From Squatina squatina (taxonomy: Eukaryota): 42,444 nt of DNA. The stretch spans positions 3,244,553-3,286,996 of the forward strand of contig JARFOE010000163.1 of NCBI GenBank assembly GCA_031763465.1. The letters are read 5' to 3'. Below are positions 12,033 to 22,605 of the stretch, piece by piece. Under the pieces are notes generated by a model that made no database searches, was not told the origin of the DNA, and worked only from the letters and a program-made list of their open reading frames with translations. Numbering within the stretch: position 1 is the first letter of the stretch; each line of letters opens with the position of its first letter. Both the position numbers and the translations under genes were made by a program.

Positions 12033-12049
12033 TTATTCGTTGTGAGTAG
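12033..12049 (-). CDS. CIRBP: CIRBP last coding exon (ATHNE*)
   Basis: Acceptor CTTCTTGTTCTCAG then CT ACT CAC AAC GAA TAA in phase 1, the same as the human CIRBP C-terminus ATHNE. Confidence 0.88.
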
Positions 12050-13841
12050 CTGAGAACAAGAAGCAGGTACAATGTAAAAAGACTGCAACAGTAATCATAG
12101 CTTCCTCTTCCTACTGTTAGATCAGTGGTATGGACTGACTTGATCATGGTTTAGAGCTACTGGGGTATGGTGGATCATCATCTGAAGCATCACATAACAT
12201 TGAATGTTATGCCATCTGCATTCCCATCTCATACTGAATGTATTATGGGAATACAGCAGNNNNNNNNNNNNNNNNNNNNNNNNNNNNNNNNNNNNNNNNN
12301 NNNNNNNNNNNNNNTCGTCAATGGTTCAAAAATTTAGAATACACTGCTGCTTTCTTGTTTTGGTTCAAGGTAGTATACATATATAAATTGATTTATAAAA
12401 GGAGTGGACAAATCCAGTCAGCTATCCAAATGACTGCTGAAAAGTTGGACATGCAGAACAAGAGCTAAAAGTATACTAGCTCAAGGTTTAAATGCAAAAA
12501 AAAAATGCATTAAACTATGGCACTTTATATTTGACTTCAAAGTTTGTACTCCACTTCTCAATATTGCACCGCTGCAGTTAACTTATAGAACTAGTAGCGG
12601 GGATCAAGCACCGTGGTGTAGCACACCAAGAACCTGTTCTTTCCGCCTGGACCCAACAGAACTGCAAGGCCAGAACCTACCATCAGTAGAACTTTCCACC
12701 CCCAGAGATGCACTGTTGACTGGTACTACAGGAAGAATCAACGTTGCATTCTACTGAGCTTTGAGGACTTTCATTATTCAGGTTACGGTTAAGTAACTCA
12801 AACCCTTTGTGGACAGCGTTGACATGCAGATACACTGCTTATTGGCCATTCACATTATATAATAATTTTATCAAGTCAACTAGATCTTTTCAGAAGATTA
12901 TAGTTACCCCAACCCGATAGTTTTCACTTGATTTCCATTTTTAATGGCACACGAGCAGAAGCCAGACGTTGTCGTCAGTTTCACAGAGTAATGATGGCGA
13001 ATGCGGAGTTTTGCCGTCATTACAACCCCAAATCACGGGCCAGTCAACCTCTGTGCTAAGCTTATAAATGCAATCATATCTGTGATTAGAAAGAGGCCAG
13101 CAGTATGGATGAACCAGTCAAAGACTCAAGCAATGCACTGGTGAGTGTACAGTGTAGATTTTCTCAAACATTAAATGATNNNNNNNNNNNNNNNNNNNNN
13201 NNNNNNNNNNNNNNNNNNNNNNNNNNNNNNNNNNNNNNNNNNNNNNNNNNNNNNNNNNNNNNNNNNNNNNNNNNNNNNNNNNNNNNNNNNNNNNNNNNNN
13301 NNNNNNNNNNNNNNNNNNNNNNNNNNNNNNNNNNNNNNNNNNNNNNNNNNNNNNNNNNNNNNNNNNNNNNNNNNNNNNNNNNNNNNNNNNNNNNNNNNNN
13401 NNNNNNNNNNNNNNNNNNNNNNNNNNNNNNNNNNNNNNNNNNNNNNNNNNNNNNNNNNNNNNNNNNNNNNNNNNNNNNNNNNNNNNNNNNNNNNNNNNNN
13501 NNNNNNNNNNNNNNNNNNNNNNNNNNNNNNNNNNNNNNNNNNNNNNNNNNNNNNNNNNNNNNNNNNNNNNGTGTGAATACAATCACATGGACAAAGGTGC
13601 ATCAATAATCAAATCAAACCACATGAAATGGGCCCACCTTGGAAGACTCCAGTGGCCAAAAGGTCCTGCCTACAAGTTAAAGTGATTTTAATACTGCTAT
13701 ACCACTTTCTCCAGTCATTTCAGTGTTCAATGTAATAAAGGGACCAACGGCAGTCTAGAGAATCGATCTGCTTAACCTCCACCGTCTCGGGACACTAAAG
13801 TGGATAAAATTCTTTTGAACTATATTAGTAAAGTTGCATAC

Positions 13842-13983
13842 CTCTAGAAAACCCACGTGCTCTACGTCCAGACCCACCACGGAAAAATCCACGGCTGCTT
13901 GCATTTCCACCCCTGTAGCCTCGGGATCGGTCCCCAGAGGATTTGCCAGCTTGATCCACCCTAATCTGACGCCCATCAATAGA
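13842..13983 (-). CDS. CIRBP: CIRBP exon 4, module B (end of RRM plus RGG region)
   Basis: Acceptor TTTTTCTCCAATTCTAG, phase 0/1, 142 nt. [47 protein letters not shown](G), donor G|GTATGC. Close to human [26 protein letters not shown]...RGFFRGG...RGFSRG. Confidence 0.92.
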
Positions 13984-14039
13984 CTAGAATTGGAGAAAAA
14001 CATCGAATAGTTATTGGTTATCAAATGGCTTTGTTTTAG

Positions 14040-14265
14040 AATATAAAGAACCTTCATTTATATAGCGTTTTCTATAATCTATAAACATCCCAACATGCTT
14101 TACATGGAAACATTGGAACAGGAGTAGGACATTCAGCCCCTAGAACCTATCCCACCAATCAATTAAGTCATGGCTGATCTTGATTTTTTCTTATAGTCAC
14201 TTTTATAATGTAGGGAAACGACATATTAACAACTTGCATTTATCCAGTGCCTTAATGTAAAACAC
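14040..14265. mobile_element. Nested SINE tail and CR1/HE1-type 3' end fragments
   Basis: AAAGAACCTTCATTTATATAGCG and AACTTGCATTTAT (reverse SINE tails), plus GGAACAGGAGTAGGACATTCAGCCCC...TCATGGCTGATCT. Confidence 0.55.
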
Positions 14266-20799: not shown

Positions 20800-20903
20800 C
20801 TTTCCATTCATGGCCAAGGCATCCTTGGCGTCATCAGGATTTTCAAAAGTAACAAAACCAAACCCCCTAGACTTGTGTGTGTCTTTATCTTTGATCACAA
20901 GGA
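20800..20903 (-). CDS. CIRBP: CIRBP-like exon 3 (RRM, RNP1)
   Basis: 104 nt, phase 1/0. [35 protein letters not shown] with RNP1 RGFGFVTF. Canonical AG/GT ends. Confidence 0.95.
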
Positions 20904-21229
20904 CTGAACATGAGCCAGGAGAAAAGAAAAGAGCATTAGACATAAGATTACAAGTTAAAAATGCATTAGAATTTCTGAAGTAAACATCTTAGCATATAGT
21001 ATTTGTTGGTGGGTATTACTCGTGAGCTGGCTTTTAAAAGAAAGTATACAATTAAAAAGGATTTCTGTGCCCCAAACACTGTCTGTGGACTTGAGGATCG
21101 ATGATTCCACATCAGGAACCTTTTCCTATATCAAGTAAACCTGCTAGCCTTCAACAGGAGCACAAGATTTACCAAGATTTAAGCCAGACATCATTCATTA
21201 CTCTGGCCATTTGCTCAAGCTGAACCACA

Positions 21230-21700
21230 CATGAAGCCTTGGTGCCACATTTGATCGAGCTATGCTTCAAACCCACATCGCATTTCTAACGTCACCCATC
21301 ACCGTACCCCTATTTGTAGTTTCTTCAATGCCCTCCTTTTCAGCATGCCATCCACCACAAATTTCAAGTTGCTAAAAATTCAACTGCACATATCCTAAAC
21401 CTTGCTCACCCACTACTCCCATCCTCACAAACCTATATTTGGCTGTATGTGCCACAACGCATTAAATTTGAAACAGTCCTCAAATCCCTACATGACCTCA
21501 TCCCAACCTATCTCAGTCTTATTTTCCCTCCCGTACTTTGCGTATCCTTCCCATCCTTTTGTCCGAATACCATGAGATACTTCAGTCACCTCAGTTCGAA
21601 TTTCAAGTTCCTTTCTGCCTCTCCACTCCAAAGAAAACCCTTTGCAAAGCCTTACTTTTCCATCATGATTTCAGTTATCTCTCCTAAGGCAATATGATTC
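21230..21700 (+). mobile_element. L2-type LINE ORF2 3' fragment (degraded)
   Basis: Degenerate TPIL..L.WL.V..RIKF...KSLHDL.P.YL, characteristic of the L2 ORF2 C-terminus. Confidence 0.6.
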
Positions 21701-22505
21701 AGCAATTGCTCCCCAATTCCTTTGATCTATTCTTTCCTCTCTCCTCCCCCACCCCAAAAAACAGCACCCTAGATTGTTTTCTACATTGACAGTGCAGTAT
21801 AAATGCAGTAATAGCCAGTTGCTATTTTTCAGTGGTGTTGGTTGAAGTAAGAATTCAGTCCAGAGTACTCAATGCTTTGTTTCATAGGGCTTTGAACATC
21901 CACAANNNNNNNNNNNNNNNNNNNNNNNNNNNNNNNNNNNNNNNNNNNNNNNNNNNNNNNNNNNNNNNNNNNNNNNNNNNNNNNNNNNNNNNNNNNNNNN
22001 NNNNNNNNNNNNNNNNNNNNNNNNNNNNNNNNNNNNNNNNNNNNNNNNNNNNNNNNNNNNNNNNNNNNNNNNNNNNNNNNNNNNNNNNNNNNNNNNNNNN
22101 NNNNNNNNNNNNNNNNNNNNNNNNNNNNNNNNNNNNNNNNNNNNNNNNNNNNNNNNNNNNNNNNNNNNNNNNNNNNNNNNNNNNNNNNNNNNNNNNNNNN
22201 NNNNNNNNNNNNNNNNNNNNNNNNNNNNNNNNNNNNNNNNNNNNNNNNNNNNNNNNNNNNNNNNNNNNNNNNNNNNNNNNNNNNNNNNNNNNNNNNNNNN
22301 NNNATGGAGAACAGTAAATGCCAGAGACAGTTTGTTCAGTCTCCTTTCCTGGTTGTCATCTCCTGCAGCACCCTATTTCAGTTAATATACCAAACACCAT
22401 CAGCCAGTAAAGCATATTTGGGACAGGCCTGTCAGTTTTTTCTTTTTAGTAAGAGAATGGCCACATTAAAATTGCTCAAAATAAACATACACATCAGGAC
22501 CTTAC

Positions 22506-22605
22506 CATCACGAACTTCTCCATACTTGGAAAATAATTGCTCCAGTGATTGCTCATCTGTGTCAAAGTTGAGCCCACCAACAAAAAGTTTTCCTTCATCA
22601 GACAT
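22506..22605 (-). CDS. CIRBP: CIRBP-like exon 2 (start codon, RRM RNP2)
   Basis: Acceptor TTCTCTCCCAG before 22613, Kozak [39 protein letters not shown], donor G|GTAAG. The non-coding exon 1 is not visible and may lie in gap 23603-23701. Confidence 0.95.

Follow-up and report, generated by a model that had tools for sequence, protein, structure and literature searches.

Vertebrate CIRBP (hnRNP A18) combines a single N-terminal RRM, with intact RNP1 and RNP2 motifs (human structures 5tbx and 1x5s), with a disordered tail rich in R, G, S and Y. In the human protein, RG dipeptides drive stress-granule entry and TNPO1 binding. RBM3 (human RRM 7eb1) has the same RRM-plus-RG-tail architecture and is described as a cold-induced paralog of CIRBP (PMC11570493). 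Also described are a TNPO3 import motif, Y-R-x(2,3)-Y-x(2,3)-Y (PMC12075686), a temperature-controlled exon 7b/8 poison isoform of CIRBP (PMC11346455; 10.1101/2023.01.18.524578), and cold induction of both cirbpa and cirbpb in carp (PMC7538616). Teleosts have two-copy CIRBP gene models (Coregonus and Merluccius, fused), in which, as at the locus reported here, a divergent copy precedes a conserved one. Amphibians likewise have several copies per chromosome, judged by common chromosome lengths, but their copies group within amphibians. Similar CIRBP pairs recur in both groups, and the contrast with the single mammalian gene drawn in the initial annotation of this DNA is accordingly less special.

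Cartilaginous fishes very probably differ from this vertebrate pattern in having two tandem CIRBP genes, here called A and B. Direct orthologs of both are listed by NCBI as 'cold-inducible RNA-binding protein(-B)-like' genes of Rhinoraja, Amblyraja, Hypanus, Chiloscyllium and Callorhinchus. Both genes are already annotated publicly as CIRBP-like, and current understanding is not overturned. The chondrichthyan pair was not described in the literature searched (titles and abstract openings, with most subscription papers outside the scope). Note that the automatic names mix the paralogs, since in Callorhinchus it is the A-type protein that is named simply CIRBP, and its B-type counterpart is 'B-like'; this confusion matters for thermal-stress transcriptomics of sharks and rays.

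The window (the whole stretch of DNA analysed) comprises 42,444 nucleotides from Squatina squatina. It very probably carries two complete CIRBP genes, tandem paralogs arising from a duplication before the chimaera-elasmobranch split and arranged on the minus strand in head-to-tail order. Each gene would have its own RRM exons, with A upstream and B downstream; exons 1-3, 5 and 6 of B and exons 1 and 7 of A would lie in assembly gaps (Table 1). The observed elements of this explanation are the exons, two types of N-terminus, the phylogenetic grouping and the tail composition. This corrects the gene model: instead of a single gene that switches between tails, the locus would hold two genes.

Table 1. 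Features of the CIRBP locus in the window, in the direction of the minus strand
Feature	Position	Strand	Description
CIRBP-A exon 2	22506..22613	-	Acceptor at 22613; 8 nt of 5' UTR, ATG at 22605, coding 22605-22506, ends in phase 1; RNP2 LFVGGL; RRM_1 E 7e-08
CIRBP-A exon 3	20800..20903	-	104 nt, ends in phase 0; RNP1 RGFGFVTF; RRM_1 E 2e-10
CIRBP-A exon 4	20328..20460	-	End of RRM and start of low-complexity tail
CIRBP-A exon 5	19608..19656	-	AG/GT boundaries, tblastn
CIRBP-A exon 6	19458..19531	-	Ends YRDDYDSY; fits the simplified TNPO3 import motif described in PMC12075686
AATAAA	18370..18375	-	Candidate polyadenylation signal; no second AATAAA from A exon 6 down to the 791-N gap
791-N gap	17266..18056	.	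By spacing, may hold the last (ATNE) exon of A and/or the first exon of B
100-N gap	15756..15855	.	May hold B exon 2
100-N gap	14266..14365	.	May hold B exon 3
CIRBP-B exon 4	13842..13983	-	94-98% identity to batoid and bamboo-shark B proteins
391-N gap	13180..13570	.	May hold B exons 5 and 6
CIRBP-B last exon 7a, with upstream intron end and 3' UTR start	11921..12095	-	Acceptor at 12049; ATHNE-stop frame

All exons proposed in the initial annotation proved real, and every minus-strand exon listed has AG/GT boundaries and an open frame. Scripted splicing of the five A exons gave a frame open for 153 codons, with introns 2 and 3 measuring 1602 nt and 339 nt. Pfam detected RRM_1 on exons 2 and 3 and the RNP motifs of the A RRM are intact. 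Other CIRBPs are one codon longer in exon 3; among 156 segments taken from 154 named proteins, three, all of them A-type, show the one-residue deletion, which lies close to where helix 2 ends. A model of the A-type protein Rhinoraja P0006 showed an RRM fold with human CIRBP 5tbx as the top match (rmsd 1.7 Å over 82 columns), at a modest model quality (mean pLDDT 60; 66-84 in the RRM blocks, below 50 for residues 83-151). The last (ATNE) exon of A was not found in the called bases of the window: a scan of 19457-14000 for an ATNE-coding exon, allowing up to 2 mismatches, returned two poor matches, neither convincing. A candidate at 19232 (an acceptor followed by Ala-Thr-stop) was rejected, its likeness to B exon 7a being at chance level (equalled in 733 of 1000 shuffles), as was the similarity between the region before the AATAAA at 18375 and the end of the B UTR (likewise 733 of 1000 shuffles).

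The 3' end of B is conserved with mammals, as in known vertebrate CIRBP: 12095-11921, which spans the upstream intron end, exon 7a and the beginning of the 3' UTR, was matched by 5 of 154 named proteins (best E 6e-07). No such conserved exon 7a/3' UTR was found for A in the window. The initial annotation had placed an ATHNE exon downstream of B exon 4. The exon stands, yet in cartilaginous fishes it may be non-coding, since all four named B-type proteins end at YRDSYDS. This ending may also be a choice of isoform in the annotation, the window's exon 7a still reading ATHNE-stop.

When seven chondrichthyan proteins were compared with the called bases by tblastn, exons 2 and 3 each appeared once and exon 4 twice, in agreement with the initial annotation, which had reported no second exon 2 or 3 in the called bases between 14.0 and 19.4 kb. 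B exons 5-6 were also missing, as was the ATNE exon of A, so that the list of absent exons is longer than the B exons 1-3 first noted. Because B exons 5-6 are missing too, absence from the called bases does not equal absence from the genome, and exons at this locus appear to be hidden in gaps. Gap spacing around B parallels the intron sizes of A: 1390 called nt separate the gap at 15756..15855 from the next one downstream, against 1602 nt for A intron 2, and 282 nt separate the gap at 14266..14365 from the B exon 4 that follows it, against 339 nt for A intron 3. As B exons 2-3 fall outside the called bases, the B RRM is seen on orthologs.

These orthologs separate two types of N-terminus. All four named B-type proteins (Rhinoraja, Amblyraja, Chiloscyllium and Callorhinchus) join their own 69-residue N-terminus to module B exon 4. 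Exons 2-3 of the window encode a 68-residue A-type N-terminus, which shares 91-99% identity with four elasmobranch A proteins and 78-82% with four B proteins. A-type proteins have their own N-terminus in 4/4 full-length cases; A and B tails thus sit on different N-termini in all eight full-length chondrichthyan proteins matching the diagnostic patterns. No A/B hybrid was present among 182 proteins scanned. Judged by these proteins, one set of upstream exons common to both tails is not supported. Exons A4 and B4 share 66% DNA identity (E 2e-11), indicating that their likeness is not due to chance; outside exon 4, no A-B DNA similarity was found except a protease echo.

The initial annotation had offered two models, preferring the first: a divergent paralog upstream, with the front exons of B in gaps, or a single RRM (exons 2-3) spliced to two mutually exclusive tails. 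The latter, as the main gene structure, would explain why the called bases hold a single exon 2 and a single exon 3, and a splice from exon 3 into B exon 4 would preserve an open reading frame. However, the distinct exons 2-3 of the four named B-type proteins contradict it, not one of the 182 scanned proteins joins an A N-terminus to a B tail, and the missing exons are uninformative given that B exons 5-6 are likewise absent; the probability left to it is very small. Independent genomes support the paralog model. Two genes might in addition produce a minor read-through transcript, in which A exon 3 is spliced onto B exon 4 so that a chimeric protein is encoded. The common strand, the compatible phase 0 and the 6.8 kb between these exons would allow this, and a hybrid ~92% identical to B would hide inside the 90% cluster of B. 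However, the candidate AATAAA at 18375 would terminate most A transcripts, and such a read-through is unlikely. The initial annotation had also raised the risk that A and B belong to separate loci joined by mis-scaffolding. The window contains 30 gaps, with A and B on different contigs of the scaffold; nevertheless, exon order and strand are as expected across all contigs, and A and B records share the longest-contig size in all three species listing both (Rhinoraja, 32,830,195; Amblyraja, 34,661,412; Callorhinchus, 10,696,575), each an independent assembly. A scaffolding error is therefore very unlikely. Equal contig size indicates a common chromosome or scaffold and not adjacency, which in other species we infer. 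Neither Hypanus, with A alone, nor Chiloscyllium plagiosum, with B alone, provided an A+B pair.

The initial annotation had proposed a tree with CIRBP and RBM3. The trees built here are unrooted, and the fetched proteins included no full-length RBM3. Search results among 50%-identity representatives, dominated by multi-RRM proteins and carrying no names, were left out. Window A grouped with batoid A (97/97), A grouped with Callorhinchus P0138 (99/95), and B formed a group (99/95). The position of the chimaera protein indicates that the duplication predates the chimaera-elasmobranch split, ~400 million years ago. In an RRM-only tree P0138, which also lacks the exon-3 deletion, fell outside A; the chimaera link thus rests on the tail. 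A and B encode identical residues at 13 of the 14 codons that open exon 4, yet 10 of these 13 codons differ silently, pointing to a split long ago and to selection on each copy. The RRMs of B proteins are 95-99% identical to one another, those of A proteins 74-95%. By these comparisons, B is the slowly evolving, conserved ortholog of bony-vertebrate CIRBP and has kept the conserved 3' end, and A is a faster-evolving paralog that is still selected.

A is more divergent than B and might, instead of being a functional CIRBP paralog, be a pseudogene in decay or the RBM3 ortholog of cartilaginous fishes. In two trees A falls close to a third shark family, whose tandem copies lie on other chromosomes, and the union of A with this family was not rejected (p-AU 0.37; 32 of 45 rows). 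Against this, the A-type protein P0009 scored 137 bits with human CIRBP, 107 with RBM3 and 101 with RBMX, and the B-type protein P0011 scored 166, 127 and 115, CIRBP being the better match for both. Moreover, A adjoins CIRBP-B, ends YRDDYDSY, and has five exons open in frame with silent-site saturation, and a single A-type database protein represents a cluster of 35 sequences. We therefore consider this alternative very unlikely and retain A as a CIRBP paralog. Regarding its deeper origin, A+B received support of 65/77 (unrooted; 32 of 45 rows, 13 redundant ones dropped). Teleost upstream copies formed their own group (99-100/98) apart from A in the best trees; joining the two was not rejected (p-AU 0.094; 32 of 45 rows).

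A disordered RG/RGG region follows the RRM in both proteins and is reduced in A. The initial annotation had contrasted a Ser/Tyr/Asn-rich, RGG-poor A with an RGG-rich B. Asn content (5-12% in A tails, 1-3% in B tails) and RG dipeptides (2-3 in A and 6-7 in B, against 9 in two amniote tails) indeed differ, but the RGG contrast was overstated (1-2 triplets in A, 2-3 in B) and Ser and Tyr are similar. Compared with vertebrate CIRBP, A has fewer RG dipeptides and more Asn in addition to its one-residue deletion. The TNPO3 motif is complete in 5/5 A-type sequences. In contrast to vertebrate CIRBP, the four annotated B proteins all end short of its last tyrosine; B exon 6 of the window lies outside the called bases.

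By analogy with human CIRBP, A and B would each use RNP1/RNP2 of the RRM to bind 3' UTR RNA, and the disordered tail of each would serve import and condensation. The tails are probably partly specialised. With about half the RG dipeptides and a complete Y-R-xx-Y-xx-Y motif, A might be more constitutively nuclear; RG-rich B, with its annotated end before the last motif tyrosine, might be the stress-granule shuttling form. We propose such a division of labour tentatively, and the pair may be cold-induced; the initial annotation had suggested an expanded cold-response system. More doubtful is that the tandem pair was kept for ~400 million years with the ancestral import and condensation signals divided between A, which would have kept the TNPO3 tyrosine motif and lost RG repeats, and B, which would have kept the RG region and lost the last tyrosine, or, in the boldest form, that an upstream-divergent/downstream-conserved pair is ancestral to jawed vertebrates and the same as the teleost pair, with one gene left in amniotes. 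If true, the pair would be a natural dissection of nuclear versus stress-granule functions of CIRBP. If tail specialisation holds, it would be a natural experiment on RG-region-dependent versus TNPO3-motif-dependent functions and would also bear on whether temperature-controlled poison splicing persisted in one copy or in both in an ectotherm.

In other searches, Rfam gave no match in the window, and Pfam, applied to 131 + 142 selected stop-to-stop frames of 541, placed every RRM in the known exons and showed nothing upstream of A that is credible as a gene, only one sub-threshold reverse-transcriptase fragment being seen. A putative second trypsin exon at 10085-9894 was rejected, having no protease match even at E 10. 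A crude scan for exon-7b-like acceptors gave one weak candidate inside the B UTR and none after A, so that a convincing 7b was found for neither gene. The A-type proteins include an isoform ending in DSYE, the length expected of a 7b-type ending.

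The CIRBP exons called in the initial annotation were all recovered; they lie on the minus strand and have canonical splice sites (see table). Spliced exons 2-6 of the upstream gene, CIRBP-A, form a 153-codon open frame, and its exon 4 is homologous to that of the downstream canonical gene, CIRBP-B (66% DNA identity, E 2e-11). As previously noted for 14.0-19.4 kb, a second exon 2 or exon 3 was absent from called bases in tblastn with seven chondrichthyan proteins, which likewise found no exon 5 or 6 of CIRBP-B there. As the window contains 30 N-gaps, exons can generally be expected to go missing. 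Upstream of B exon 4, one gap starts after 282 nt (compared with 339 nt for A intron 3) and another lies 1390 nt beyond it (compared with 1602 nt for A intron 2); downstream, a 391-N gap opens 271 nt past the exon. These positions match those expected for the missing B exons, which we infer to lie within the gaps.

Features of the CIRBP locus and the neighboring B7/CD276-like gene (window positions)
Feature	Position	Strand	Support
CIRBP exon 2, coding part	22605-22506	-	canonical splice sites; Pfam RRM_1 match
CIRBP exon 3	20903-20800	-	canonical splice sites; Pfam RRM_1 match; 104 nt
Module A exon 4	20460-20328	-	canonical splice sites
Module A exon 5	19656-19608	-	canonical splice sites
Module A exon 6	19531-19458	-	canonical splice sites
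Module B exon 4	13983-13842	-	canonical splice sites
B exon 7a, ATHNE-stop frame	from 12049 (12049-12033)	-	canonical splice sites
B7/CD276-like, signal-peptide-like exon	near 4510-4560	+	
B7/CD276-like, IgV exon	near 5300-5645	+	V-set domain (E 1e-15); CD276 as top PDB match (E 2e-31)
B7/CD276-like, IgC exon	near 6790-7058	+	C2-set domain (E 3e-06)
B7/CD276-like, CpG island	3600-4400		

The locus had been read either as tandem paralogs, with the front exons of B inside gaps, or as one RRM with two alternative tails. A exon 4 as query returned five matches, four full-length proteins (including Rhinoraja, Hypanus and Amblyraja) and one partial; among the best 120 of 173 matches to B exon 4, the top three were from Rhinoraja, Chiloscyllium and Amblyraja. 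Two Callorhinchus proteins were added by profile search. B-type proteins carry an N-terminus of their own type (69 residues; 68 in elasmobranch A-type proteins). Exons 2-3 of the window are 91-99% identical to four A-type N-termini and 78-82% to four B-type N-termini. Window exon 3 has a one-residue deletion between RNP1 and the exon 3 end; among 156 segments drawn from 154 named proteins, three show this deletion, each of them A-type. Proteins joining an A N-terminus to B exon 4, or the reverse, numbered zero among 182 homologs, a set in which an A/B hybrid, being ~92% identical to B, could hide within B's 90% cluster. A minor read-through form joining the two may therefore exist, although none was seen; a shared RRM as the main gene structure is excluded. 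The locus is a real, old and conserved tandem paralog pair viewed through a gappy assembly, and the exotic reading is not supported.

In all three species listing both types, A and B share the same longest contig (Rhinoraja, 32,830,195; Amblyraja, 34,661,412; Callorhinchus, 10,696,575), which indicates a common chromosome or scaffold but falls short of proving adjacency. Hypanus and Chiloscyllium plagiosum list only one type, A and B respectively.

By RRM score, both copies are CIRBP family members, closer to CIRBP than to RBM3 (A, 137 versus 107 bits; B, 166 versus 127 bits). Public annotation already holds both as CIRBP-like, names that fail to tell A from B. The literature searched, mostly non-subscription and without supplements, yielded no description of the chondrichthyan pair, which argues weakly for novelty. 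Chondrichthyans have a third CIRBP/RBM3-like family (P0131, P0132, P0134, P0135), possibly the RBM3 orthologs by their likeness, on other, larger chromosomes; in four species it is annotated as two copies fused in one model, indicating that it too is tandemly duplicated.

In an unrooted 45-row tree of RRM and linker, calculated without RBM3, window A grouped with A proteins from batoids (97/97), while all four B proteins formed one group (95/82), with the Callorhinchus A-type protein P0138 outside A. When tails were added, P0138 fell within A (99/95) and B again formed one group (unrooted). Given this placement of P0138, the duplication most likely preceded the chimaera-elasmobranch split, ~400 million years ago. 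Fused gene models of the teleosts Coregonus and Merluccius resemble the pair in combining a divergent first with a conserved second copy; in a tree restricted to 32 rows of the 45, the data did not reject a grouping of A with the teleost first copies (p-AU 0.094), and A plus B had weak support (65/77). Extra amphibian copies clustered inside amphibians (unrooted trees, without RBM3).

The copies diverged asymmetrically: B proteins share 95-99% of their RRM residues with one another, A proteins 74-95%; the B RRM is 88-93% identical to three bony-vertebrate canonical copies and the Coregonus second copy. At the start of exon 4, A and B agree in 13 of the first 14 residues while 10 of these 13 codons differ silently, which indicates that both copies stayed under purifying selection. 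The 3' end of B retains conservation with mammals: window 12095-11921 was matched by 5 of the 154 named proteins, mammalian long read-through isoforms. None of the 154 matched downstream of A exon 6.

The modelled Rhinoraja A protein combines a disordered tail with an RRM fold of four strands and two helices (pLDDT 66-84 in the RRM blocks), its best structural match being human CIRBP (5tbx; rmsd 1.7 Å, 82 columns). Because the window encodes intact RNP1 and RNP2, RNA binding by A is likely retained. The RG/RGG region of human CIRBP is reported to bind TNPO1 and to be required for stress-granule entry (PMC7165476), and TNPO3 (Transportin-3) to bind a Y-R-x(2,3)-Y-x(2,3)-Y motif, with low affinity for Y167A (PMC12075686). 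A tails contain 2-3 RG dipeptides, more Asn than B tails, and a complete TNPO3 motif (5 of 5 sequences); B tails contain 6-7 RG dipeptides and lack the last tyrosine of the motif (4 of 4 annotated proteins). Tentatively, a partial division of labor might follow, in which A would be the more nuclear and B the more granule-prone member. All four named chondrichthyan B proteins (P0010, P0011, P0012, P0155) stop at YRDSYDS. In the window, by contrast, exon 7a has a perfect ATHNE-stop frame; B exon 6 lies outside the called bases. The stop may fall in exon 6 with exon 7a conserved at the UTR level, or reflect isoform choice; as exon 7a still encodes ATHNE-stop, the short ending may be one annotated isoform, which counts against a division of labor. 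The reading of the pair as specialised or ancestral seems improbable.

Mammalian CIRBP is reported to be cold-induced via a CLK-controlled exon 7b/8 poison isoform, with an acceptor region described as conserved across vertebrates (PMC11346455, PMC7726792, PMC11570493, PMC12795684, 10.1101/2023.01.18.524578). No such exon was located in either copy in the window. Both carp cirbpa and cirbpb are reportedly cold-induced (PMC7538616), and the available portion of a turtle genome preprint names CIRBP with no mention of a duplicate (10.1101/2025.04.01.646645).

Downstream of CIRBP-B, a trypsin-like serine protease is represented by an orphan last exon (8899-8753, minus strand) with an AG acceptor and 48 open codons beginning GDSAGLLVC before a stop (Pfam Trypsin E 3.8e-05). 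Its altered catalytic serine motif and one missing conserved cysteine make it look degenerate. No further protease exons were found in the window; the remainder may lie in gap 9378-9477. A weak DNA echo of this exon occurs downstream of CIRBP-A (18454-18367, minus strand; 76% over 58 nt, E 0.003-0.013). Its score of 50 was reached in none of 100 whole-region shuffles, and the next best real window scored 35 when the coding exon served as query; with the longer query, however, a stretch of unrelated A/T-rich DNA reached 52. If real, the echo would mean that the protease exon belonged to the duplicated unit. A B7/CD276-like gene faces CIRBP-B (about 4510-7060, plus strand).

The 19 kb upstream of A contained no credible protein-coding gene. 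A reverse-transcriptase fragment (42012-42218, plus strand; E 0.001) falls short of the Pfam cut-off. Several pairs of short interspersed repeats (75-89% identity) are scattered over 27-40 kb. CpG-enriched stretches at 36000-37200, containing a 17-nt tandem repeat (36074-36121), and at 32400-32800 adjoin gaps and possibly represent the promoter of a transcript.
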